Shown here: positions 29,545-45,862 of the stretch, piece by piece | Layout: each line of letters starts with the position of its first letter | Numbering within the stretch: the stretch's first letter is position 1 | The notes under the pieces: generated by a model | The model's database searches: none | What the model was told of the DNA's origin: nothing | Seen by the model: only the letters and a program-made list of their open reading frames with translations | Source: Candidatus Poribacteria bacterium | GTDB taxonomy: Bacteria; Poribacteria; WGA-4E; WGA-3G | DNA: 64,000 bases | NCBI GenBank assembly: GCA_965215265.1 | Contig: OZ244048.1 | Coordinates: 3,488,001-3,552,000, forward strand | Reading direction: 5' to 3' | Program-made: the position numbers and the translations under genes

Positions 29545-29779
29545 CAGGAGTAACATGGACACGGGGTTTTAAGTAACAGTCGGATGTGCTTTCCGTTTTC
29601 TTTAGAAGCACGTTGCGAAAGTGCTGTTTAGATCTGCAAGAAGCCGCTGGCAAGGTTTCCCGCCTCGGAAACCCTTGGCATTGATTTTTTGTAAGGTTAT
29701 TTTGGCGTACATGTCATCGGAGATATCTTCGCCAAATTGTAGAAACGCATTTTGCAAAACCCTGCATTTTAAAACGAGA

Positions 29780-30463
29780 ATGAGAACAGATAAGAATTTT
29801 CCGCATGCGGCAAAGGAGCCGCTTGCCAATAAACCCATAGCTGATGAAACACAAAAGTATCAATCCGTTCTGCTGGTAGGTCCCCCTGGTGTCGGCAAAG
29901 GCACACAAGGTGAGCTGCTGTCAAGGATTCCGGGGATTTACCACCTTTCTAGTGGTAATATGTTTCGGCAGCTTGATCCTAATTCCGCCCCAGGGAAACT
30001 CTTTCATAAGTATGCAACACGCGGCGATCTGGTACCGGATGAAATTACGGTGAAAATATGGAAAGACTATATACAAACGCAAGTATTGGAAAAAACGTTC
30101 AATCCAGGTCATGATCTGCTGATTCTTGATGGCATACCGAGGAATATAAAGCAAGCGAGCTTGATCAAGCCTTATGTTAAAGTGCTTAAAATTCTCTATA
30201 TGATTTGCACGAATCCGGAGGTGATGTTCCAGCGCATCCGAGGGCGCGCAGCAAAAGAACATCGCTTGGACGACGCGCAAGAGTCCATAGTCCGGTATCG
30301 ATGGGAAATCTACAAACAGGAAACGGAACCGCTGATTGATTGTTATCCTCAGGAACTCGTCCGAATTGTGGATGCAGAGACGATTCCGGTAGAGGTACTG
30401 CAACAAATTTTAGAGGCAGTGGTCCCTATTCAAAAAAAACATTTTTCACCACCTCTCATGTAG
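29780..30463 (+). CDS. adk: Adenylate kinase (short LID)
   Basis: P-loop GPPGVGKGTQ, 'HLSSGNMFR', 'GDLVPD', 'LDGIPR', 'RLDD'; ORF is open from 29621 but the likely start is later. Confidence 0.88.
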   Translation: MRTDKNFPHAAKEPLANKPIADETQKYQSVLLVGPPGVGKGTQGELLSRIPGIYHLSSGNMFRQLDPNSAPGKLFHKYATRGDLVPDEITVKIWKDYIQTQVLEKTFNPGHDLLILDGIPRNIKQASLIKPYVKVLKILYMICTNPEVMFQRIRGRAAKEHRLDDAQESIVRYRWEIYKQETEPLIDCYPQELVRIVDAETIPVEVLQQILEAVVPIQKKHFSPPLM

Positions 30464-30601: not shown

Positions 30602-32341
30602 TCAATGACGTTGACGATAGAGACGTATCTCAGGATGCACGAGGGCACGCATCGGAAACGGTGCACCGGTATCGGATATGTGGATGCCTAAAAATTGCGG
30701 GGTTCGACGAAAAACGCGACGCAATTCGTATTTATTTTGTGACTTCCCGGGTTTCTCCAGTAACGAAAGATCTTTGCCTAAAATTGGCGCGTAAAACGCT
30801 AAATTGTGCTCCAACTCAATTCCTTCCAAAGGATACCAATCAGGGTTTTCTAGCCTCTGCCCGGAGTGTGAGCCCTGTTGCCCTGGCACGTATTTTTGAA
30901 AAACTTCAACGTTAGGTATCAGAATCAGAATCCAGTCTGCATCAGTATGTATCAGTTCCCGATCTAATTCAGGGAGGAGCCAGTCGAACAAGATTTCCGG
31001 TGCACATGAAATAGACTCCTCTTGCGGTATATTGGCAGTTATCCACTCAGATGCCTCAACCCGAGTCGGTGATGATAGTAAAACAGAAGCAAAAGCGGCT
31101 GTGTAAATCACTGAGTAAATTGCTACTGCACCTCCGAAGAGCAACCCAAACAAAGATATGGCTCGGATGGATGTGTTTTGTAATTGTGCAAGCATCGCCC
31201 CAGTAAGCACAGCGAGTACAGGATAGAGTATAAGTAGGTGTCGCGTAAATTTGACTTTGTAGGCACCAATGAATAGCAGATACGGGATAATGAAAACGAG
31301 CAACGCCCTTGTTGAACGTTTGTGTTTTTCATATTTTTCTCGGTTAAATTGATTAATATGAGATTTCCATGGGCTTGCAATGACAAGCGCATATAAGATA
31401 CTAACGCTGACAAGAAACGCAAGTGGCCAGCCCATACCCCATTTGAGAAGTGTCCACAAATAGGTAAATCGCTGTAGTCCGTTAGTTTCGGTTGTAGTAA
31501 ATAATCCGAAATGTCCACGTTGATAGTGCGTGGTTTCATACCAAAAATCCTCAAAGAAGAGGTTCCACACCGGCGACAACAAATCAATGAGCCAATACGG
31601 ACAGCTCAGCGTAAAGGTAATAATAGCTGCACTAATCAGTGTGGTGATTGATTTCTTTATTTTTTTTTTCAACATGGGTTGTGTTGAGGTGAGTGTCTGC
31701 CTATTCGAATCGCTACGTAGGTGGGTGTGGGAGAGAAAAAATAGGGCAGATAAAACCGCAAAGGCAGTTGTAAATTTAACAGCGAAACCGATGCCAGAGA
31801 CAACACCGAGGGACACGAGCGTTTTACGTTGTAACTGTGCCCCGTCGCGTATCAAAAGCCAGAGAAATAACGTCACACAAAAGGTAGCAGGAATGTCAAC
31901 AAGTGCGAAACGGGATTCGTTTGTCGCGTGTAGCATCGTGACAGCGAGAAGTCCAGCCGCAATTTGTCCGGTCCGTTTATTGTAACAGGAGGCACCAAGA
32001 CGATAGGTGAACCAAAGCGTGGCTGTTGATAAAAGTGTATTTACGAAACGCGCCAGCAAAATGACACGAGATTCTGTGAGATGAAAGCCTACAATTGAGA
32101 GTAGTTTCCCTATCAGCGCGATAAGATAGAACCAGGCTGTTCCGGGCCAGTTATAGATTTCGGGGGGTGCGGTAAAGTTGATCAAATTCAGAACTTCGTG
32201 CGAGATTAGCACTTCGCGCGGGTCCGGTGAGTCAGGGAGCCCGACACCTAAGCCGAGGATGCGAATCCCGAAGCCGAAGGTGAGAATGCAGGCTATCACA
32301 AAGGTCTGTTTCAACTTTAGACATTTTCTTAGACTTTGCAA
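30602..32341 (-). CDS. GT-C fold glycosyltransferase (ArnT/PMT, family 39-like)
   Basis: Multi-TM; 'PDPRE', 'SRFALVD', 'AVKF', 'RHLLILYP'. Confidence 0.8.
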   Translation of the reverse strand: MQSLRKCLKLKQTFVIACILTFGFGIRILGLGVGLPDSPDPREVLISHEVLNLINFTAPPEIYNWPGTAWFYLIALIGKLLSIVGFHLTESRVILLARFVNTLLSTATLWFTYRLGASCYNKRTGQIAAGLLAVTMLHATNESRFALVDIPATFCVTLFLWLLIRDGAQLQRKTLVSLGVVSGIGFAVKFTTAFAVLSALFFLSHTHLRSDSNRQTLTSTQPMLKKKIKKSITTLISAAIITFTLSCPYWLIDLLSPVWNLFFEDFWYETTHYQRGHFGLFTTTETNGLQRFTYLWTLLKWGMGWPLAFLVSVSILYALVIASPWKSHINQFNREKYEKHKRSTRALLVFIIPYLLFIGAYKVKFTRHLLILYPVLAVLTGAMLAQLQNTSIRAISLFGLLFGGAVAIYSVIYTAAFASVLLSSPTRVEASEWITANIPQEESISCAPEILFDWLLPELDRELIHTDADWILILIPNVEVFQKYVPGQQGSHSGQRLENPDWYPLEGIELEHNLAFYAPILGKDLSLLEKPGKSQNKYELRRVFRRTPQFLGIHISDTGAPFPMRALVHPEIRLYRQRH

Positions 32342-33206: not shown

Positions 33207-33749
33207 GTGAATAGAACGCTAGGCAAAAAGCCAAATATTATCCTTGTAGGGTTCATGGGAACCGGTAAAACGTCAGTTGGTAGAAGGCTTTCTACGCACC
33301 TACGGATGCGTTACGTTGATACAGATACTTTGATTGAACAAGAAAGCAGGCGAAGTATCAGCGACATTTTCGCGCAAAACGGTGAGGCTACATTTCGACA
33401 GTTAGAGAATGAAGTTGTTCGCAAAGTATCGCGGTTGCACAACCATGTTATTTCCAGCGGTGGCGGTGTTGTTTTGAAAGAAGAAAACATGGCAAATCTC
33501 AAGCGGAACGGTATCATCTTCTGCTTGACAGCCACGGCAGAAGAAATTTATCGACGCGTTGGCAGCCAAACGTTCCGACCGTTGCTTCAAACGCCTGAGC
33601 CATTGGATAAAATACGGGCGATGTTGGCAGAACGTCAGCCGTATTATGCTCAAGCGGATTATATGGTAAAAACGACGGGGTGCCCCTTTAACGAGATTGT
33701 CGCACACATCAAATCTATTTTTTACGGTGTTGTTAAGCGAAAACCGTAA
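33207..33749 (+). CDS. aroK: Shikimate kinase
   Basis: GFMGTGKT, 'DTD', 'GEATFR..E', 'SGGG', 'RPLL'. Confidence 0.95.
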   Translation: MNRTLGKKPNIILVGFMGTGKTSVGRRLSTHLRMRYVDTDTLIEQESRRSISDIFAQNGEATFRQLENEVVRKVSRLHNHVISSGGGVVLKEENMANLKRNGIIFCLTATAEEIYRRVGSQTFRPLLQTPEPLDKIRAMLAERQPYYAQADYMVKTTGCPFNEIVAHIKSIFYGVVKRKP

Positions 33750-34957
33750 TGCTTATTTTATCTCAGGATTGGGTCGCCAGAATCGTTGCAGGATGGTTGG
33801 CTAACTATTTTTTAATTCCCCACGAGGTCAAAGAAGCGATATTGCTATGGTTGGCTAATTATGCTATGAAAACAAAAACGCTAAATGTTGCGCTGGGCAC
33901 AAACAGTTATTCCATCATCGTAGGTCAGGGAATTCTCGACAGAGTTGGAGAATATCTTACTGCTCATGTCAAATCAGACAAGGTCCTTATTGTTTCTGAT
34001 GCTTATGTTAACCAATGCTATTCTCCTATTGTCGAGGCAAGTTTAACGGATGCTGGATTTGCCGTAAACAGTGTTGAGGTTCCTGCTGGTGAAAGGAGCA
34101 AATCGTTGGCCCAGTTTGCTCGGATACAAGATAGCCTTGTGGAGCATCGGCTTGATCGGGGTTCCGTGCTCGTAGCATTGGGTGGAGGAGTAGTTGGCGA
34201 TTTAGGCGGCTTCGCTGCGTCGACTTACATGCGGGGGATTGGTTATGTACAAATTCCAACAACGCTACAAGCCCAAGTCGATGCCAGCGTAGGTGGAAAA
34301 ACGGCGATTAACCATCCGAAAGGTAAAAACCTGATTGGCGCGTTCCATCAGCCGAAATTAGTTTTAATCGATGTAGATACGTTGAAAACCTTGCCGCAAC
34401 GAGACATACGCGCAGGGCTAATTGAAGTGATTAAAATGGGAGTTATCCGAGACGAACTGCTCTTCAAAATGGTAGAGGATAACCTCAATGCGATTTTCGA
34501 CTTAGATGCGGCAACGTTGATGGCAATAATTGCACGCGCGTGTGCCAATAAAGCGGATGTAGTGACGAAAGATGAAAAGGAGAGCCGGTTGCGAATGGTG
34601 CTTAACTATGGGCATACATTTGGACATGCCCTGGAAGCACTGACAGATTACAGCACCTATCGGCATGGTGAGGCGGTTTCAATTGGAATGAATTGCGCAG
34701 CACAATTAGCAGTCAATTTGTCTCTGTTTTCCGAAACGGATTTCCAACGTCAACGCCAATTATTAAAGCGTGCAAAACTACCAATTAATTTCCCATCGGA
34801 GGTTTCACCGAAACGGTTATGTGATGCAATCTATTTAGACAAAAAAAATGTGGGAGGCATGCTTTGTCTAATTTTACCGACGCGCATTGGCGAAGTGGTT
34901 ATAGAAGATAACGTGGATATAAAAAAGGTTTTGAATGCCATTTCACAATGCTTTTAA
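33749..34957 (+). CDS. aroB: 3-dehydroquinate synthase
   Basis: 'GGGVVGDLGGF', 'PTTL.AQVDASVGGKT', 'KNLIGAFHQP', 'LNYGHTFGHALE', 'HGEAV'; alternative start at 33866. Confidence 0.95.
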   Translation: MLILSQDWVARIVAGWLANYFLIPHEVKEAILLWLANYAMKTKTLNVALGTNSYSIIVGQGILDRVGEYLTAHVKSDKVLIVSDAYVNQCYSPIVEASLTDAGFAVNSVEVPAGERSKSLAQFARIQDSLVEHRLDRGSVLVALGGGVVGDLGGFAASTYMRGIGYVQIPTTLQAQVDASVGGKTAINHPKGKNLIGAFHQPKLVLIDVDTLKTLPQRDIRAGLIEVIKMGVIRDELLFKMVEDNLNAIFDLDAATLMAIIARACANKADVVTKDEKESRLRMVLNYGHTFGHALEALTDYSTYRHGEAVSIGMNCAAQLAVNLSLFSETDFQRQRQLLKRAKLPINFPSEVSPKRLCDAIYLDKKNVGGMLCLILPTRIGEVVIEDNVDIKKVLNAISQCF

Positions 34958-35104
34958 GCCATACAACGCGAAAGACAGTAGGGACTCCGTCCTTTTTAAG
35001 GATCAGAAAACTCCCTTACAAAAATTGTAGGAGAAAGTGCTGCTTCTTATCCCAGCTGTTGTTAGTCCGTGATGCAATCAGGTGCGGACTTTGAAGGAAA
35101 ATAT

Positions 35105-36256
35105 ATGAGATTTAACAAAACTATTCTATCAATAATAAGCTGCGTGCTTTTATGCTTATTTGCTGCTACGGTGTTAGCTCAGGGGCTCGCTCCACCTACA
35201 AATGTTAAGGCAGTAGATACACCAAATGACGATGGCAAAAGCATTACCATCACGTGGGATGTGGCTGACGAAGCAAGCAGCATCAGAGGTTACCAAATTC
35301 TACGGAGTTTAGTGATAGACGAATTTGAGGAAATCGGGGGCCTGCTCCCTGCTGATACAACAGTATACACAGATTCATCCGTTGAAGAGGGAACCGCTTA
35401 TACCTATATTGTCCGCGCGGTTAGTGAAACAGAGGCAACAGTAGATTCTGAACAAACCGTGCCAGTTAAAGGGACCGGCGAATGGTTTCATACCGGCAAG
35501 TTGCCGCTGTTTATCGCCATGCTGCTTTTTTCTGCAGCGATTGTTTGGAATACCTACCATGCACGAAGTGGAAAAGAAATATTTGTTCGCCGCATTCCTG
35601 GCTTAGAAGCGGTGGATGAAGCTATCGGCAGGGCCACAGAGATGGGACGCTCGATTCTATACGTATTAGGGTTAGGGGGTGTTAGTGGAGTCGCGACAGT
35701 TGCCAGTATGACAATTCTGGCGCAAGTAGCACGGCGGACTGCCGATTATGAAACGCCCTTACGTGTGCCGTGCAATGATCCTATCGTGATGAACGTGGTA
35801 CGAGAGATGGTGAAAACCGCGTATCTTGAAGAGGGGCACCCGGATGCCTACAATGAAGATAATATCTTTTTTCTGACAGAGGACCAGTTCGCCTACGCAG
35901 CAGGCGTTGACGGTATCATGGTGCGTGAGAAACCGGCTACAGTATTTCTGCAGGGGGCTTTTGCTGCAGAATCCCTCATCCTTGCTGAAACCGGGAATTC
36001 TATCGGTGCTATTCAGATTGCGGGGACAGACTCTGAGCACCAGCTTCCATTTTTTATCGCCGCTTGTGATTACACTCTAATTGGCGAAGAGCTCTACGCC
36101 GCGAGTGCTTACCTTTCTAAAGAGCCAATGCTCCTCGGAAGTCTTAGAGGGCAAGACTGGGGGAAAGTCCTTATTTTCGCCGCTATCGCCCTCGGTGTCA
36201 TTCTTGAACTATCCGGTATTACTTGGATAACAACACTTTTACAACGGGTTAATTAG
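35105..36256 (+). CDS. FN3 domain + DUF6754-like membrane protein (four-gene cluster, gene A)
   Basis: Signal peptide, FN3-like 'PTNVKA.D.PND.G..ITITW...YTD...YTYIVRAV', TM, 'RRIPGLEAVDEAIGRATEMGR', 'QLPFFIAACDYTLIGEELYAASAYL'. Confidence 0.8.
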   Translation: MRFNKTILSIISCVLLCLFAATVLAQGLAPPTNVKAVDTPNDDGKSITITWDVADEASSIRGYQILRSLVIDEFEEIGGLLPADTTVYTDSSVEEGTAYTYIVRAVSETEATVDSEQTVPVKGTGEWFHTGKLPLFIAMLLFSAAIVWNTYHARSGKEIFVRRIPGLEAVDEAIGRATEMGRSILYVLGLGGVSGVATVASMTILAQVARRTADYETPLRVPCNDPIVMNVVREMVKTAYLEEGHPDAYNEDNIFFLTEDQFAYAAGVDGIMVREKPATVFLQGAFAAESLILAETGNSIGAIQIAGTDSEHQLPFFIAACDYTLIGEELYAASAYLSKEPMLLGSLRGQDWGKVLIFAAIALGVILELSGITWITTLLQRVN

Positions 36257-36323
36257 GGAGTCTTATGAAGAATCAATTACAAGTGTGTCGGATTTTTAAT
36301 TGGGCAACACTGAGGAGATGTAT

Positions 36324-36974
36324 ATGAAACGACAAGTACCTTTAGTGCTCTGCTTTCTTTTCGGCGTTGTGATGTGCTTCACCCAGTTTAGTCCGCATTC
36401 ATATTCGCAAGCAATTTACAACGAGGTAGTTTATTGGGCATTGATTATGTCGCCCTTTGCTCTTGCAGTAGGAACGATAACGCTTATTCAAACCCATGTG
36501 ACACGCATTCGCCGCCGCACAGAGCATTGGCAATACAGTTTTGTTGTCTTTGCTGGACTTCTCGCAATGGTAGCTATAGGACTTCCCTTTGGACCGCAAT
36601 ATCCTATGTTTGAATGGTTATTTAACAACATCCAAGTACCGCTGGATGCTACAATGTTCTCACTTCTTGCTTTTTTAATTGCATCTGCGGCATTTCGCGC
36701 GTTCCGTGCTCGGACGTTTGAGGCATCTCTTCTCTTGATTACTGCTATGATTGTAGTAATCGGAAATGTTCCTGTTGGGGATCTGATCTGGAATACGGTC
36801 TTATCCTGGTTACCTTGGGACGACGGGGCCTCAGGGACAAGGCAATGGATTTTGGAAAATCCCAATCTCTCAGCACGGCGTGGAATCATCCTCGGTGTCA
36901 GTTTGGGCGTGATTTCACAAGCCATACGCCTCATCCTCGGGATTGAGCGCTCTTACATAGGTGGAGGAGATTAA
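36324..36974 (+). CDS. Uncharacterised ~6-TM membrane protein (gene B)
   Basis: GAGGAG RBS; 'ATMFSLLAFLIASAAFRAFRART', 'RLILGIERSY'. Confidence 0.8.
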   Translation: MKRQVPLVLCFLFGVVMCFTQFSPHSYSQAIYNEVVYWALIMSPFALAVGTITLIQTHVTRIRRRTEHWQYSFVVFAGLLAMVAIGLPFGPQYPMFEWLFNNIQVPLDATMFSLLAFLIASAAFRAFRARTFEASLLLITAMIVVIGNVPVGDLIWNTVLSWLPWDDGASGTRQWILENPNLSARRGIILGVSLGVISQAIRLILGIERSYIGGGD

Positions 36975-36978
36975 CAAA

Positions 36979-37794
36979 ATGCTTAGTAAACTGATGAATC
37001 TCGACCGGCGCATTGTTTTTATTCTCGTCGCGTTAGCAGTCATCATTCCAACACTCTTGCCACTCAATTTGCCAATCACAGTCTCTGGACCGACAGAGAG
37101 AATCTACGATTACATTGATGCTCTTCCAGCTGGGGCAACTATCATGATCTCTTTCGATTATGGACCCTCTTCCTTACCTGAGCTCAACCCCATGGCAAAA
37201 GCTGTTTTAAGACATTGCTTCGATAAAGATGTCCGCGTTATTGGAATGACACTTTACCCCTTTGCTCCAACTCTCGCCGATACTTTGATGAAAGAGGTTG
37301 CCGATGAGGCTGGTGCGGTACGTGGTGAAGATTATGTTTTTCTTGGATTCCGACCTGGATATGAACAAGTTATGCTTCGTATGGGAACGAGTATCGCAAG
37401 CACCTTTGAGAAGGATTACACAAACACTCCACTCACAGAGATTCCGATGATGAAGAATATCACCAATTACGACCAAATTGACCTTATCTTAGACCTCGCG
37501 TCCGGAAGTACTGTTGAACTTTGGATCACCTATGTCAACGTGAAATATAGCCAAGAGGTTGCCGCTGGAGTTACTGGTGTGATTGTTTCCCAAATGTATC
37601 CTTATTTACAAACCAAGCAGTTAGTCGGATTAATGCCCGGATTTCTAGGAGCCGCCGAGTATGAGAAACTCGTCGGTGTAACTGAAAAGGGAACAGAAGG
37701 CATAAACAGTGCCTCTCTAGTACATATGTTAATTCTGGGATTAGTCGTTATGGGCAACGTCATATTCTTTATTCAGCGTAGACAGAAGGAGTAA
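36979..37794 (+). CDS. Uncharacterised membrane-anchored protein (gene A')
   Basis: GGAGGA RBS; TM-soluble domain-TM topology; 'SFDYGP', 'GEDYVFLGF', 'YPYL...QLVGL..G..GAAEYE'. Confidence 0.8.
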   Translation: MLSKLMNLDRRIVFILVALAVIIPTLLPLNLPITVSGPTERIYDYIDALPAGATIMISFDYGPSSLPELNPMAKAVLRHCFDKDVRVIGMTLYPFAPTLADTLMKEVADEAGAVRGEDYVFLGFRPGYEQVMLRMGTSIASTFEKDYTNTPLTEIPMMKNITNYDQIDLILDLASGSTVELWITYVNVKYSQEVAAGVTGVIVSQMYPYLQTKQLVGLMPGFLGAAEYEKLVGVTEKGTEGINSASLVHMLILGLVVMGNVIFFIQRRQKE

Positions 37795-37798
37795 ATTT

Positions 37799-38482
37799 AT
37801 GGAAATTATAGATATTGTAGGGATCTGGATTGCAGCAGCTTTGACACTCTGTATTTATAGTTTTCTTTATCGAGATAATCCATTTTATCGATTCGCAGAG
37901 CACCTCTTTGTAGGCATGTCTGTTGGCTATAGCATTGTTATCTCTGTTCACCAAGGATTCATACCGTTCGCGTGGGAACCGTTCTGGGCAGCTGTGAAAC
38001 CGTTTTGGCCAGGGGTGCCCCGAGAAGCAGGCTGGAGCGGGTTGTGGAAACTGATCCCAATCGGAATTGGCTTACTATTTTTGGGTGGAGTGTCGCCCCG
38101 TAACACATGGTTGATTCGCTACCCTAGCTCTATCTTAATTGGGTTTGGGGCAGGTCTTTCAATCCCGAATGTATTAAGAGCAAATATTTTTGAGCAGACG
38201 CGGGGAACAGTTGAACCGTTTGCAGCTGCACATGCAGGAACTCTTTCTGGATGGGGTATTTTCGAAGCAGTCCTTATGGTTGTTGGAGTCGTTTGCACAC
38301 TTACCTATTTCTTCTTTTCTGTTGAACACCGAGGTCCCATCAAGTGGCTGTCAAAGGTCGGAATCGCTTTTTTGATGATTGGATTCGGTTCTGCATTCGG
38401 CAACACGGTGATGGGACGTGTTGCTCTCTTAATCCAACGCGTTGATTTTCTCTTAAACGATTGGCTCGGAATGCTTTTTTGA
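37799..38482 (+). CDS. Uncharacterised ~6-TM membrane protein (gene B')
   Basis: AAGGAG RBS; 'YSFLYRDNPFYRFAEHLFVG', 'TYFFFS', 'FLMIGFG..FGNTVMGR'. Confidence 0.8.
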   Translation: MEIIDIVGIWIAAALTLCIYSFLYRDNPFYRFAEHLFVGMSVGYSIVISVHQGFIPFAWEPFWAAVKPFWPGVPREAGWSGLWKLIPIGIGLLFLGGVSPRNTWLIRYPSSILIGFGAGLSIPNVLRANIFEQTRGTVEPFAAAHAGTLSGWGIFEAVLMVVGVVCTLTYFFFSVEHRGPIKWLSKVGIAFLMIGFGSAFGNTVMGRVALLIQRVDFLLNDWLGMLF

Positions 38483-38628
38483 ACGCCGCATGTGCAACTG
38501 GACAATATATCACAAGGCCGCAAATCGTGTGAGATTCATTATTATATTCAGAGATGTCCGTTGCCGAGGCCTAGACCGCTACAAAAAATCAGGTTTATTT
38601 TTTTAGATAAGAAGGAGCGGAAAATCTC

Positions 38629-39471
38629 ATGAAACTCGGATATAGTACCTGGGGGATGCCCACAGTGCCGGTAGATGTTGCTATTCAACATCTTGCCTTC
38701 CTCGGCTTCGATGGTATAGAACTAACCATCATACCACGTTTCACAACGGAGCTTAGCACCCTTGATACCACAGAACGGAAACGAATTGCAGGTCTGCTGA
38801 AACAGCATAACTTAGCCTTACCGGCAATTGCGGCGCATTCCAGTTTGATGGAAACTGATGTTGAGATACACGAACGGAATATGTGGCGGTTAAAAGGTGG
38901 CGTAGATTTGGCGGTGGAACTCGCACAAGGTGGTGAATTGCCTGCAGTCAATACCACCCCCGGTGGAAAACCGGAACAGTGGGAATCAAAGAAACATTTC
39001 CTTGCTGACCGGGTGGGTGAATTAGTCGATTATGCTGCGACATCCGGTGTAACTATCGCTATGGAGCCGCACATTGGCGCGATTATTGATACACCGGATA
39101 AGGTACTTGAACTGCTGAACATTGTCGATTCTCCATATCTCAAAGTGAATTTTGACATCAGCCACTTTGATATAGTGGGGCTGACAATTGAGGAGACGGT
39201 CTCTGCGTTAGCGTCTGTTTCAGCACACACGCACGTCAAAGATCAGCGCGGGCTTGCCCCGGATTTTGAGTTTCTCATCCCAGGTGAAGGGCCTTTTGAT
39301 TACGTTGCCTATCTGAAGTCGATGGAGACACACGGTTATGATGGCTTCATAACGGCAGAGGTCAGTTTCATGGTGCAGGCGCGTGAAGATTACGATGCGC
39401 TTGCCGCCGCAACTTTGTCTTATGAAACATTATCGCAGGCGTTTATTGATGCCGGCATTGAAAGGGTGTAA
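38629..39471 (+). CDS. Sugar phosphate isomerase/epimerase (IolE/AP endonuclease 2 TIM barrel)
   Basis: 'GFDGIEL', 'MEPH', 'NFDISH', 'HTHVKD', 'PGEG', 'GYDG...E'. Confidence 0.88.
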   Translation: MKLGYSTWGMPTVPVDVAIQHLAFLGFDGIELTIIPRFTTELSTLDTTERKRIAGLLKQHNLALPAIAAHSSLMETDVEIHERNMWRLKGGVDLAVELAQGGELPAVNTTPGGKPEQWESKKHFLADRVGELVDYAATSGVTIAMEPHIGAIIDTPDKVLELLNIVDSPYLKVNFDISHFDIVGLTIEETVSALASVSAHTHVKDQRGLAPDFEFLIPGEGPFDYVAYLKSMETHGYDGFITAEVSFMVQAREDYDALAAATLSYETLSQAFIDAGIERV

Positions 39472-41175: not shown

Positions 41176-42959
41176 TTATATGGATGCGGTATCGTTCAGT
41201 TGTTTCAGGTGGTTTGCATGACGTACCAACTCGATCAATTCATCCAGCTGTGGCGTTTGCAAGTTGAGACCTTTCAGCATCTTCTGGACAGTTTCTAAGG
41301 AGCCTTTCCTTGCCCAATAACTGTCTCGAAGGATTTCCGCGTAGTGAGCAACAGCGGTAGCGAGTTGAAAAGCGGGTGATGCCTCCTCAAAAGTGCGATG
41401 TAGGGCTTCTAGGGAGAGAGCCTCCTGAATCTCCGTCACCTGCTCGGTGTCCGGATCTTCGTGCCGGATGAATACAGTTGCGAGGGTACCGACAGCATTT
41501 TCATGAAGTTTAATCTCATAGAGTGCGGTGACACTATGGCCTGCACCGACTTCGCCAGCATCCACTGCGTCATTGCGGAAGTCTTTATGCGCAAGCCACC
41601 GGTTCTCATAGCCGAGGAGCCGGAACCGGCTGACTGTCTTAGGATTGAACTCAACCTGAATTTTGGAATCTTTGGCGATGAGCTGCAACGTGCCGGTCAA
41701 ATTTTCGACAAAGATGCGCTTCGCCTCCTTCAAGGTATCAACATAGGCGTACATACCGTTGCCTTTATTGGCAAGTTGCTCCATGAGCTCGTCGTTGTAG
41801 TTACCCATGCCGAAACCGACGGTCGTCAGCATAATCCCTTCCTTGACATAGGTTTCAATCTCTTTGAGAATACCCGAGGCACTCGTAATCCCTTCATTTG
41901 CAACGCCATCGGAGCAGAGAATCACGCGGTTGATGCAATCCTTTTGGAAATTCTGAAGTGCGAGCTCGTATCCCTTCCGGAGGCCATCCTCGGCATTTGT
42001 CACGCCAGAGGTGTGAAGGGATTCAATTGTTTCTAAGATATGCTCACGGTTGCTAATGCGGGTATGGGGTAGCACGACCTCGGCATCGGTGCCATAAATG
42101 ACGATACCGACTTCGTCTTTCGGTCGCAGCTGCTCAACTAAAAGTCTCAAAGCGCGTTTGACTAACCCTAACCGGCTTTCCATAGACATAGAGCCGGAAA
42201 CATCAATCACGAACGTCAGGATTGCGTTCTTCCGTTCATCCGCTTCAACAACGCGCCCTTGAATACCGATGCGCAGCAATTGAAGCCGCTTGCCCTCCCC
42301 GAACTTGGAAGGCGCGGCTTCAAGATGAATAGCGAATGCCTCTTCCATTGGAGGAGTGTAACCGTAATCAAAGGCGTTCACAAATTCCTCAACGCGCACT
42401 GCATCTTTCGGGGGTAAGTGTCCATCTCGGAAGTAGCGTCGCGCCACAGCATAGGACGCAGTATCCACGTCCATAGCGAATGTCGAAAAGGGGTCATCTT
42501 CTGTATCGATAAACGGATTGGTGCCGTGATGCTGAAAATAGACATCAGGATAGGCGGCATCGTTAGGGGGTTCAAACCTTGGGCTTGAGGGTTTGCAACA
42601 TCAAAGGATGCCGCTGCTCCCGCGTATTTTGCTTTGATGGAGCGGCGTTGCACATGTCTGTTTTCAACGACAGTGCTGCTATGCAAAGTCCCCTTAATGA
42701 CAGGTTTTCGTACCATCGGTTCCGGGGGTGCCAAGGGGTTAATAATATCAGCAGTTACTAAATTCCGATTCGTATATTGATGCTGAGTGTTCCCGGGATA
42801 ATAAAGCCCGGCAATAACCGCAACGATTAAGTGGAACGTCAGCGAAATTACAAGGGATCCTGGAAGTTTTTGTCTCCTAAAACGTTCAAGTGTTTTTGAC
42901 GTGAAAGGGAGTGTGCCCATCTCGCCAGAGATTTTTTTGTGAGTTCCTTTAATACGCAT
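41176..42959 (-). pseudogene. YfbK-like vWA domain protein, frameshifted near 42575-42600
   Basis: C-terminal frame 'GTNPFIDT...STFAMDVDTASY...DVSGSM...SDGVAN...RLLGYENR' begins just after a TGA at ~42600; the N-terminal TM-anchored part is in another frame. Confidence 0.75.
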
Positions 42960-43189: not shown

Positions 43190-45862
43190 TTATCCATCTG
43201 TCTGCTGTAAGAACTGTCGAAGTCCGTGTAACGATTGCCCACTGAAAAATCGCCACTCGTTTTGGTGAACGAAGAGGTAGTGCCACGGCACAGCGGATTC
43301 GGACGCTGCACGACACCATGAACGTCCTGCGATCGCTTTTTGCCCGGCGTTCTCATCAGGCATTCCCTTCGTCTCGATGAGGAAATGCGCACCGCGGCTG
43401 TCACAAACGACGAAGTCGGGGATATAACGTGCAATGCGCCCTTTTTCTGTTAGATAGTCAATCCGGAGGGCTTCAGGTCCTGCATTCTTCGCGAAGGCTT
43501 TAACATCAGTAGCAGCGTCCAGCCACCGGGTGAACTCTGCCTCAAAATGGCGATGACATGGTACTAAATTGAACATCGTCTTATTTGCAGTAACGACGGG
43601 GTTTCGTTCACTCGCCGTGAACGGGTACGGTTGCCATGTAGACAACCGCATCGGTGCCGTTTCAAAGGCACGCCTCTTGCGCGTCTCCGTTAGTCGCTCT
43701 AAAATTAAGGGGGCAAACACAGCATGGATACGTTGGACAACATCGTCATCGCTGAGGCGCTGAATGAGGCGCGCGTCAGTCAGTGTTACTTTTTCTTCAA
43801 AGAGCATCTCTGTGAGAAATTGTGCCAAGAGCGGTGCAATAATCGGGTGTAGTATCGGCGGGAGACAACAGACACGCTCTAACTGTTTGACGAAATAAGA
43901 GATGGCTGTCCAACCGTTTTCAAGGAGCGGCAGGTGAAACGGCATCCATTCAACGAGCTGATTGGTGATGAGGTGGCGCCCTATGTATTCAGCGGTTTGT
44001 GGGTTTGCTAATGAGAGTTTGGGCAGCTCAGCACACCGCCCTTCAACATCCCGGCGGTTGATAGCGTCAAGTGCGACAAGATTTAGCCAGTGTGCATCGG
44101 AGATGCACGGGATTTCGATATCAAGTGCAGGAATCTGTTCCGGGTAGATTGAAACAACGGTGGATTTGATGGTAGTCGGCTCTTGGATAATTGGGGTGAC
44201 TCCTTCTATTCCGAGTGCCTCTTGATATAAAGTGTTAAACGCCGGATGCTCAATGACGACAACTGTCTCAGCGACTTCCGTCGTGTCGGGGTGTGTGATT
44301 CTGCGTAAGCCTCTACCGAGTGTCTGTTCCGGCAAGATTTTGGAGTCGGCTGTAAACGGCCGAAGCGGCACAATTACTGTGACGTTTTTGACATCCCATC
44401 CTTCTCGTAACATGAGTACAGAGACGATGCAAGCATAGGGGTTCTGATTGCTATCCAGTTCTCTGCTCAGCTTGCGGAGGGCCTTCAAATCCGCGTTGCT
44501 CATCTGTTTTTCGTTTTCAATGAACTCGCCGTGCTTGTTGATTTTTCCTTTTAGGTTTGTATGGAGATTAAGCGTCTTCCCGTTGAGTTTCTCAAAGTGT
44601 GGGTCGGTGTTGAGAAGTTTTGTAATTTGATCTGCGGCTTGCGTATTCTCACACATGACAAACAGCAACACTTTTTTTCCAACCTTTTCCCATTCAAAAA
44701 AACTCGCCTTCCATCTTTTGTAACCGAGTTCCAAATGTGCACGATACTTTTCGGCAGCGTTATCGGAAGAGTTTTGTTGCAGCGCCGCAGAACCGATAAC
44801 TGGGACTTTCACAATGCCTGCATCGACAGCTTCGCCCAAGGGTGTGTCGCAGACGATATGTTTTAGGGGGGTGCCGCTTCTGTCGCGCGGGGTAGCAGAG
44901 AAGTCGAGCTGCGCCACAAGGCCGCTCCTGTGCCGGTTCTCCGCTTCCTGATGGAAGAATTGGATGGCTTGACTCCACGCCAGATCCGGGTGCCAGATGT
45001 GATGTGCCTCATCGTTCAGGACCATCAGCCGCGATTCACTGGCGATGCGCTCGCGGAGTGCTGCCCCGATGTCTATGGACGAAGTAGGGGTGACAGCCGG
45101 GCCCATAAATGTATAATACTGATTCGCCTTTTCCTGTTGCTTCGGATACAACTTTTGGATGTTGGTGAGGTAAAGCACACCATTCCCTGCACCACCGGGT
45201 TCGTTTTGATGGATGACGTTGAGGTGCCAGTCCTTTTTCCACGCTGGAGGGATTAATGGATCGTTATCAAAGATTTCTCCGTCTCCGAAATCTTCTAAAA
45301 GCCGCTCTGTAACAGTAAGTCCTGGGGCGATTACTAGAAATCGTGTTGTTAGTTCAGAATTGGGCTCTCGGCGTGCGTGGAAGTAACTCCAGACAATGGC
45401 GAGACTCATGCACTTCGTTTTGCCGGTGCCGGTTGCGAGTTTAAAGGCGTACTTCGGCCACGCATTGTCCGTGCGCGGCACCCCCGCCGCTACCAATTCG
45501 GCATTAAGCGAATAATCATATTTGGCGATGAGGCCAGAAACGCTCCGAATCTGCGCAACTTCATACAAGTAAATGAGCGTTTCGATGGCTTCTTGTTGAC
45601 AAAAGTAGTATCGGAATTCACGTTCGCCGATTAGATGCTCGCCGCCGAACCAGTGCGTTAGTAGTACACGCGATGTCTCGCTCGCACCCTCATACCCGGC
45701 TTCACGCCACGTTCCAACGGCACGGCGCAGCGCGTTAGGCACAGCAAGGTGCGATGGGCGGCGCCCCGCTGCTATATTGCCTGCTTGACGATGCCGATTC
45801 GGTTCTTCCCATGGTGCGTGCAGTCGCGAAAGTTCTTGTCGGTCAACATGCAATGTTGTCAT
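43190..45862 (-). CDS. Type III restriction enzyme Res subunit (SF2 helicase + PD-(D/E)xK nuclease)
   Basis: Walker A 'ATGTGKT', Walker B 'NDEAHH', 'SATP', 'LREGWDV', 'EQTLGRGLR', 'YIPDFVV...IETKG'. Confidence 0.93.
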   Translation of the reverse strand: MTTLHVDRQELSRLHAPWEEPNRHRQAGNIAAGRRPSHLAVPNALRRAVGTWREAGYEGASETSRVLLTHWFGGEHLIGEREFRYYFCQQEAIETLIYLYEVAQIRSVSGLIAKYDYSLNAELVAAGVPRTDNAWPKYAFKLATGTGKTKCMSLAIVWSYFHARREPNSELTTRFLVIAPGLTVTERLLEDFGDGEIFDNDPLIPPAWKKDWHLNVIHQNEPGGAGNGVLYLTNIQKLYPKQQEKANQYYTFMGPAVTPTSSIDIGAALRERIASESRLMVLNDEAHHIWHPDLAWSQAIQFFHQEAENRHRSGLVAQLDFSATPRDRSGTPLKHIVCDTPLGEAVDAGIVKVPVIGSAALQQNSSDNAAEKYRAHLELGYKRWKASFFEWEKVGKKVLLFVMCENTQAADQITKLLNTDPHFEKLNGKTLNLHTNLKGKINKHGEFIENEKQMSNADLKALRKLSRELDSNQNPYACIVSVLMLREGWDVKNVTVIVPLRPFTADSKILPEQTLGRGLRRITHPDTTEVAETVVVIEHPAFNTLYQEALGIEGVTPIIQEPTTIKSTVVSIYPEQIPALDIEIPCISDAHWLNLVALDAINRRDVEGRCAELPKLSLANPQTAEYIGRHLITNQLVEWMPFHLPLLENGWTAISYFVKQLERVCCLPPILHPIIAPLLAQFLTEMLFEEKVTLTDARLIQRLSDDDVVQRIHAVFAPLILERLTETRKRRAFETAPMRLSTWQPYPFTASERNPVVTANKTMFNLVPCHRHFEAEFTRWLDAATDVKAFAKNAGPEALRIDYLTEKGRIARYIPDFVVCDSRGAHFLIETKGMPDENAGQKAIAGRSWCRAASESAVPWHYLFVHQNEWRFFSGQSLHGLRQFLQQTDG

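Follow-up and report, generated by a model that had tools for sequence, protein, structure and literature searches.

What kind of membrane system is specified by four adjacent genes that lie at positions 35105-38482 (+) of a poribacterial contig, and what might energize it? The DNA analysed here (the window, 64,000 nucleotides of contig OZ244048.1 of a Candidatus Poribacteria bacterium) carries these genes co-directionally, translationally coupled and in tight packing. An earlier note on the same DNA had read them as a pseudo-symmetric complex of the A-B-A'-B' type, a transporter or channel of an undescribed class. We refer to the products of genes 1, 2, 3 and 4 as subunits A, B, C and D, of which A bears the domain of unknown function DUF6754 (PF20539), and we name p600 and p375 two partner proteins encoded elsewhere in the same genome. 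Our analysis describes A-B-C-D as a conserved membrane module, and very probably the module is partnered with the p600/p375 ATPase pair.

Conservation and spread of the four-gene module

Genes 1-2-3-4 were found in this order by tblastn in 19 of 20 poribacterial regions, the exception being a second copy of gene 1. Loci from other genomes were collected by a pattern scan with one genome per species; 79 loci were taken from at least 625 confirmed stretches and were sorted with hidden Markov models built from four poribacterial alignments. Complete 1-2-3-4 sets are present in 66 of the 79 loci, with two tandem sets in seven and three in four. The remaining loci comprise one with gene 3 in two pieces, eight cut by a contig end and four with gene 1 alone. 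Because the same order recurs in 19/20 and 66/79 loci, the A-B-C-D arrangement is far beyond chance, and the window conforms to the four-gene definition, with A, B, C and D adjacent, on the same strand and in this order. The reading of the cluster as a real and conserved DUF6754 membrane module of uncharacterized kind is thus sustained by the retained order, as is the statement of the earlier note that similar clusters recur in other bacteria: the neighbourhood analysis across taxa reaches many phyla. Close relatives are labelled Candidatus Poribacteria in their contig titles, and among the contig or protein titles of other members are Zixibacteria, WOR-3, Eisenbacteria, Latescibacterota, Fermentibacteria, Armatimonadetes, Eremiobacterota and Dependentiae.

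The module is near-universal in the phylum of the window, where 172 of 176 genomes contain DUF6754, against 0 of 14 controls; the window's own genome holds a single PF20539 match. Every one of the 151 genomes sampled in the phylum of genome G179 has the domain, with 2-10 matches each and mostly five. All 14 genomes in the phylum of G178 have it too, which makes that phylum uninformative on co-occurrence. The multi-set loci provide insight into how such copies are passed on. They contain 26 sets, and we asked of each how many of its subunits have their best outside match in one and the same foreign set: all four do so in 11 sets, three in 10, two in four and one in the last. With at least three of four subunits in agreement in 21/26 sets, the sequences indicate that the sets are inherited as units.

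Comparison of paralogous sets within one locus separates a conserved inside from a variable outside. Median identity is highest for the DUF6754 domain of A (52.5%, 11 pairs), followed by D (48.0%, 16 pairs), B (44.4%, 16 pairs) and C (38.5%, 16 pairs), and lowest for the N-terminal ectodomain of A (33.1%, 7 pairs). The parts of A, B and C that are predicted to face outward carry interchangeable modules of the binding type (FN3, PQQ, FG-GAP, CARDB, HEAT). The alignments omit partial matches, sequences more than 80% identical to a retained one, gene 2 of locus L029 (the two tblastn pieces are separated by a stop) and the duplicate loci L056, L063, L067 and L073 (equal to L035, L038, L024 and L026, respectively). 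Alignments A5, A6, A8 and A9 also omit several rows that bear inserts, are fused or contain X; examples are L086, L106 and L114 for gene 1, L079:8130-9905 and L119 for gene 2, the L107 fusion for gene 3, and L058 and L092:4634-5383 for gene 4.

Gene 1 is a full-length member of the Pfam family DUF6754, an entry that covers one domain of unknown function; neither the four-gene set nor the ATPase pair is described in the literature that we searched. A full-text search for DUF6754, PF20539 and PF13941 found no paper, subscription journals being mostly outside its coverage. As the earlier note had expected, Pfam, NCBIfam and PDB sequence searches gave no match to a characterized transporter family. 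Searches of Pfam, NCBIfam, PDB sequences and protein folds matched the module to no characterized system, and in this sense it is new in kind.

The partner proteins p600 and p375

Clustering of neighbouring genes revealed two recurrent proteins upstream of gene 1. The larger, p600 (about 600 aa), matches the MutL/GlmL family (PF13941, E 5.6e-126). The smaller, p375 (375 aa), has no family at standard thresholds, with weak barrel-sandwich or biotinyl-like matches at its N-terminus (best E 7.5e-04). The gene for p375 stands directly before gene 1 in 13 loci (L022, L029, L033, L072, L082, L084, L089, L097, L104, L108, L111, L115 and L118), whose record titles name several phyla, and in 10 of these p600 precedes p375. 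Co-occurrence was assessed in 151 genomes around a metagenome-assembled genome (MAG) labelled Nitrospirota. DUF6754 is present in 25 of them and p375 in exactly those 25; PF13941 matches 26 genomes: these 25 and one more, in which the match is a 66-position fragment at the end of a contig. The genes for p600, p375 and A share one contig, in that order, in 24 of the 25 genomes.

PF13941 occurs in 169 of the 176 poribacterial genomes. It occurs also in 149 of the 151 genomes in the phylum of G179, mostly once per genome, so that there several modules stand against one ATPase. The window's genome, a chromosome of 4.83 Mb, has the module at about 3.52 Mb, p600 at about 0.40 Mb (match at G000:C1:400949-402379, E 4.7e-128) and p375 at about 4.51 Mb (match at G000:C1:4507508-4508635, E 3.9e-141). 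The earlier note had stated that no ATPase is present. This is correct for the four-gene cluster, in which Pfam and NCBIfam detect no ATPase, binding-protein or redox family, and no ATP-binding cassette (ABC) ATPase or ABC membrane domain in any of genes 1-4; it does not extend to the system, as p600 and p375 strictly co-occur with the module and are encoded elsewhere in the genome.

The p600 of the window's genome, at L121:1402-3291, has 630 aa and matches PF13941 over all 450 positions (E 1.2e-127); the p375 of this genome is at L122:1531-2637. Homologues range over 600-630 aa and have a C-terminal extension of about 150 aa; seven of them, from related loci, are 62-75% identical to the window genome's copy. 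The phosphate-1, phosphate-2 and adenosine motifs of the actin-fold (ASKHA) ATPases are kept in all eight aligned p600 sequences. The family is named for accessory proteins of glutamate mutase and ornithine degradation, which p600 resembles in its full-length match and its ASKHA motifs. It differs from them in its linkage to a membrane module and p375 rather than to a mutase, in the C-terminal extension and in its scores against the equivalog models. The homologue in L089, on which the equivalog test was run (the window genome's copy was scanned against Pfam only), reaches 232 bits versus a cut-off of 475 for GlmL and 220 versus 600 for Or-4. Because these scores fall far below both cut-offs, p600 is best classed, on its sequence, as a GlmL-like ATPase of its own kind and not as a true GlmL. 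A PDB sequence search with p600 and p375 gave 0 matches.

Some genomes in the phylum of G179 contain a second, longer PF13941 paralogue, in frames of 933-954 aa (E 1e-103 to 1e-107), at G450:C204:1524-2903, G466:C32:69622-71004, G468:C146:3644-5023 and G360:C15:48638-50014.

Architecture of the subunits and the question of duplication

The four open reading frames (ORFs) occupy 35069-36256, 36300-36974, 36961-37794 and 37799-38482 on the + strand. Likely starts were set by alignment of orthologues together with Shine-Dalgarno-like motifs upstream. Gene 1 likely begins at ATG 35105. The ORF of gene 2 opens at TTG 36300, and its likely start is ATG 36324, preceded by GAGGAG. Genes 3 and 4 likely begin at ATG 36979 and ATG 37799, each with its motif (GGAGGAG and AGGAG, respectively) within the 3' end of the preceding gene. 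The gaps measure 67 nt between genes 1 and 2 and 4 nt at each of the other two junctions. A tight operon with good ribosome-binding sites, as the earlier note had it, is therefore what the motifs before genes 2, 3 and 4 and the 4-nt gaps indicate, and both strings that it quoted from the ends of genes 1 and 3 are found in the ORF translations. A consensus scan of 34800-38800 for promoters and terminators returned sites no commoner than in shuffled sequence.

Subunit A (383 aa, 35105-36256) was delineated by Pfam, PDB profile matches, AlphaFold2 (AF2), hydropathy and charge. Its DUF6754 region, residues 125-378 (35477-36238 (+); Pfam and alignment), matches PF20539 with 403 bits (E 5.4e-121, profile positions 3-256 of 257), where the gathering score is 27 bits. 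A hydrophobic, signal-like segment at residues 7-23 precedes an FN3 domain at residues 30-109. The match of the latter to PF00041 is marginal over the cut-off (25.2 bits, E 1.9e-05; gathering score 25 bits), and it is backed by PDB profile matches to titin FN3 domains (E 1.8e-15), so that the FN3 domain proposed for gene 1 at the outset is retained. Membrane helices follow at residues about 131-147 and 356-372. The FN3 domain is acidic, the first helix is followed by a basic stretch, and 11 residues at the C-terminus are predicted outside. Membrane orientations of A, B and C were assigned by the positive-inside rule (counts of K+R) on hydropathy segments. From this pattern we infer for A a signal peptide, an FN3 domain outside and a cytoplasmic DUF6754 domain.

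No part of the module is better conserved than the DUF6754 region, which is 50-88% identical to 77 relatives from many phyla (alignment A6). The AF2 model of residues 125-383 has a mean predicted local distance difference test (pLDDT) score of 93.3 and a predicted template modelling (pTM) score of 0.86; the input alignments for A and C held 77-78 sequences. Reading alignment A6 on this model groups the conserved residues after strands 4-6, and the alignment shows no invariant His and no conserved glycine-rich loop for dinucleotides. The best structural neighbour of the soluble domain by VIA-align is 2cun_B (Z 10.0, root-mean-square deviation (rmsd) 3.4, 145 residues aligned), and 1kjn_B follows with Z 9.7, rmsd 3.3 and 132 aligned; Foldseek with the same model found no PDB match at E <= 0.001. 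A total of 2342 longer proteins match subunit A at E <= 0.001, and the best 120 of them share 56-65% identity and have titles that name many phyla. Longer forms of A bear FN3 domains or PQQ-type beta-propellers. In one A that lacks B-D (L086:6992-9193 (+)), a Peptidase_S49 (SppA-like) domain (E 8.1e-44) is joined to the C-terminus; the genome concerned, G177, has six DUF6754 matches. The fusion lies at the predicted outer end of A and thus fits the predicted topology.

Subunit C (271 aa, 36979-37794 (+); AF2 model, alignment and topology) has two hydrophobic segments around a 218-aa domain, a short basic N-terminus and a basic C-terminus. The 218-aa domain is predicted to be periplasmic and the basic ends inside. 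In the last membrane helix His249 and Asn260 are invariant. The AF2 model (pLDDT 95.6, pTM 0.91) aligns best with 1kjn_B by VIA-align (Z 9.7, rmsd 3.9, 140 aligned), and Foldseek gave one PDB match at E <= 0.001, the half-domain of a glycosyltransferase (5i45, E 3.6e-04, TM-score 0.33). Among 1.84 billion proteins, the profile of C finds 5434 representatives at E <= 0.001 and 1516 at E <= 1e-30. Some C proteins elsewhere contain CARDB or HEAT repeats.

Subunit B (216 aa, 36324-36974 (+); ORF, start motif, hydropathy and alignments) has six hydrophobic segments with both termini predicted inside. A motif around AAxRAFRAR, including its Arg residues, is invariant at the cytoplasmic end of segment 4. 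Elsewhere, one B carries FG-GAP repeats in its third outside loop. Inserts of about 100-150 aa in this loop were also seen in the poribacterial orthologues of L026, L028, L030, L031 and L032, and gene 4 has inserts of 45-137 aa ahead of the fifth segment in L031 and L032; Pfam assigned no family to the two insert-bearing L031 proteins. Subunit D (227 aa, 37799-38482 (+); ORF, alignments and hydropathy) is polytopic, with four hydrophobic segments above threshold and further, weaker ones read by eye, and with the conserved motifs SFLYxDNPxYxFAEH and YFFFSxEHxG.

C and D also occur as natural fusions, C then D in one frame, in L107:12616-14328 (+) and in the proteins P0246 and P0257. The L107 fusion carries an extra hydrophobic segment at its C-terminus, and a sequencing error is possible there; P0246 and P0257 are separate cluster representatives at 50% identity. 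A word-index comparison of C with longer proteins, a weak search, found none at E <= 0.001, where the exhaustive search gave two fusions.

Database searches place B, C and D in no named family. For genes 2-4, Pfam gives no family at E <= 0.01 and noise alone up to E <= 10. In NCBIfam, gene 2 gives sub-threshold matches only (17-20 bits versus cut-offs of 125-151 bits), and genes 3 and 4 give none. The profiles of B and D have 0 matches in the PDB sequence search at E <= 1, and the best for C is at E 0.11. A protein-atlas search with B and D returned only unnamed clusters of "hypothetical protein".

Is the module a duplicated pair, as the A-B-A'-B' scheme holds? The models of A and C are alike: a membrane helix, a helix, six strand-helix units of Rossmann-like order and a long membrane helix. 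Their lists of structural neighbours share 11 of the 50 best entries. Both lists are flat, with phosphoglycerate kinase (PGK), sirtuins, short-chain dehydrogenases/reductases (SDRs), RCK/KTN domains and MT0777 (1kjn) at 4-16% sequence identity. These generic Rossmann-like proteins align to the soluble parts of A and C and differ from them in that none is held between two membrane helices. At the level of sequence the resemblance ends. Within the cluster, BLASTP gave nothing meaningful for A versus C or B versus D. The hhalign probability for A versus C is 0.2% with poribacterial and 1.3% with cross-phylum alignments, and for B versus D 0.2% and 1.0%, respectively; internal repeats or cross-matched halves of B and D reach 10.6% at best. 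The soluble domains of A and C are, moreover, predicted on opposite sides of the membrane. On these grounds the paralogy scheme is unsupported, and nothing detectable makes the module a pseudo-symmetric duplication. Of the likeness claimed for genes 1 and 3, the shared architecture stands and detectable homology does not; given the same order of helices and strands in the models, A and C may descend from a very old common ancestor. Genes 2 and 4, which had been taken as related, show no detectable relationship. Their similar size (216 and 227 aa) is real, and the six membrane segments proposed for both apply to B, with D showing four above threshold.

Candidate functions and neighbouring genes

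What would such a module do with an ATPase? We tentatively favour a modular, ATP-driven membrane machine that takes up a periplasmic substrate, a statement that, taken whole, is possible and somewhat short of probable. In this proposal p600/p375 would bind the conserved cytoplasmic DUF6754 domain of A, and ATP-driven movement would be relayed through a membrane core of B and D to the outward parts, C and the ectodomain of A. These would capture a ligand, and the module would do work across the inner membrane, most likely the import of a periplasmic substrate through B/D. Different modules would provide different specificities to one common motor, much as a single ATPase can serve several ABC importers. 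The polar residues within the membrane, i.e. the invariant Arg at the end of segment 4 in B and His249 and Asn260 in C, are in agreement with this. The analogy with ABC importers extends to two different polytopic subunits, an outward binding part, a conserved cytoplasmic coupling surface and the copy ratio (mostly five DUF6754 to mostly one ATPase in the phylum of G179). It fails in that importers of that kind use a P-loop ATPase, where the partner of this module has the ASKHA fold and the module has no ABC domains, and in that the binding-side domain here is membrane-anchored at both ends. That the module founds a new class of primary active transporter, with an actin-fold motor and one p600/p375 pair serving interchangeable four-subunit units, is rather doubtful.

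Several points weigh against uptake driven by p600/p375. Both the transport activity and its substrate are putative, and physical contacts are presumed between A and p600 as well as among A-D, where the natural C-D fusions and the inheritance of whole sets lend indirect support. Structures were predicted for A and C only, so B and D may have a known transporter fold. We know of no actin-fold ATPase that powers a transporter. FN3, CARDB, FG-GAP and the PQQ propeller are scaffolds of protein and glycan interaction rather than classical solute-binding proteins. The four loci with gene 1 alone have no B-D-like neighbour even at E <= 10, and subunit A, once with an S49 peptidase attached, can evidently serve another context. 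The 25 co-occurring Nitrospirota-sample genomes may be one clade and hence not 25 independent events, and in the window's genome the module, p600 and p375 are dispersed, where co-regulation is not readable from the DNA.

Some of these same observations suit an envelope machine that does not transport, in which force derived from ATP, or a signal, would travel from a cytoplasmic actin-fold protein through the module to partners in the periplasm or at the surface. Such a machine is unlikely, in our estimate, and its candidate roles, to be held no more firmly, are the anchoring, assembly or remodelling of the envelope, by mechanotransmission of the FtsEX type or an integrin-like link. The domains that face outward (FN3, PQQ and FG-GAP beta-propellers, CARDB) are scaffolds for interaction, an S49 (SppA-like) peptidase sits at the predicted outer end of one B-D-less A, p600 is an actin-fold protein, and a near-universal, single-copy module (172/176 poribacterial genomes) is what a housekeeping function of the envelope would give. 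Two polytopic subunits with invariant charged or polar residues in the membrane, however, exceed the needs of an anchor, about five diverged sets per genome in some phyla suit variants of specificity better, and no envelope-biogenesis gene recurs beside the module. The kinship of p600 points in a different direction. The Rossmann-like, cobalamin-binding subunits of mutases are the presumed targets of GlmL-type and related actin-fold reactivases. By analogy, the Rossmann-like domains of A and C could bind a nucleotide or cofactor within a membrane-bound enzyme or cofactor-handling complex, on which p600 would act in the manner of a reactivase. The GlmL/MutL match (E 1.2e-127), the nucleotide-binding proteins among the best structural neighbours of A and C (PGK, sirtuins, SDRs, RCK/KTN) and the clustering of conserved residues of A after strands 4-6 speak for such a complex. 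We consider it quite unlikely, as A lacks both an invariant His and a conserved glycine-rich dinucleotide loop, the L089 homologue falls at 232 bits against the 475-bit GlmL cut-off, no mutase or other enzyme gene recurs nearby, and the C domain is predicted outside the cytoplasm, where nucleotides are scarce.

The proposal of a self-contained, pseudo-symmetric A-B-A'-B' heterotetramer, a secondary transporter or channel in need of no ATPase, would account for the absence of an ATPase gene from the cluster itself, for the common element order and shared structural neighbours (11 of 50) of A and C, and for the similar sizes of B and D. It is improbable in view of the missing profile similarity in either pair and between halves of B/D (best 10.6%), the opposite predicted sides of the A and C domains and the strict co-occurrence of the module with p600 and p375. 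The least credible of the alternatives, which we regard as very improbable, ties the module functionally to the TIM-barrel protein (an epimerase in the earlier note) and the sulfatase, e.g. for the uptake of sulfated sugars. The genes for these two proteins follow gene 4 on the same strand, an arrangement repeated at 80-84% identity in the related genomes of L040 and L041; in L022 a gene for a TIM-barrel protein of 23% identity lies downstream of the module. Nevertheless, L040 and L041, of the window's own family, are the only two of the 20 poribacterial loci with a sulfatase downstream, and the other 18 have none. Gene 4 and the TIM-barrel gene are 146 nt apart, and the 25 neighbour clusters that recur most often (68 loci clustered) include neither family. 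The suggested link therefore finds no backing, and we treat both genes as lineage-local passengers.

The proposal of an ATP-driven machine powered by p600/p375 also bears on why the module matters. If a transporter or force transducer powered by an actin-fold protein is real, it would be a new kind of energized membrane machine and would account for a great many "hypothetical" genes of uncultured bacteria, sponge symbionts included. The family is widespread and strongly conserved, yet none of its members has a solved structure or a known function. For expression and cryo-electron microscopy, a compact construct is available in the six-gene operon form (p600, p375 and A-D).

The module is set off from its neighbours by gaps of about 146 nt on both sides, to a 3-dehydroquinate synthase gene upstream and the gene for the xylose-isomerase-like TIM-barrel protein downstream. 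Shikimate kinase (PF01202, E 7.1e-46) and 3-dehydroquinate synthase, at 33207-34957 (+), lie directly upstream. The same pair precedes the module in L040 and L041 and is nearby, on the opposite strand, in L030, an adjacency that looks like lineage-local synteny. In L079, L081, L087, L091 and L092, MAGs labelled Ignavibacteria or Zixibacteria, the last module is followed by a basic protein of about 103 aa without a family and by pyruvate phosphate dikinase; this too is probably lineage synteny.

Further upstream in the window, an adenylate-kinase-like ORF (29621-30463 (+)) has an ADK domain that begins only at residue 85 of 280, and either its true start is further downstream or it has an N-terminal extension. 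It is followed by a polytopic PMT_2-type glycosyltransferase of 579 aa at 30602-32341 (-), E 7.2e-13. On the other side of the module, 41176-42474 (-) encodes a vWA/YfbK-type protein (VWA E 7.7e-19; YfbK_C E 1.5e-41), and a 193-aa ORF without a family (42378-42959 (-)) lies upstream of this gene and overlaps its start. An 890-aa protein at 43190-45862 (-) contains a ResIII helicase domain (type III restriction res-subunit, E 2.7e-14) and may belong to a locus for restriction or defence.

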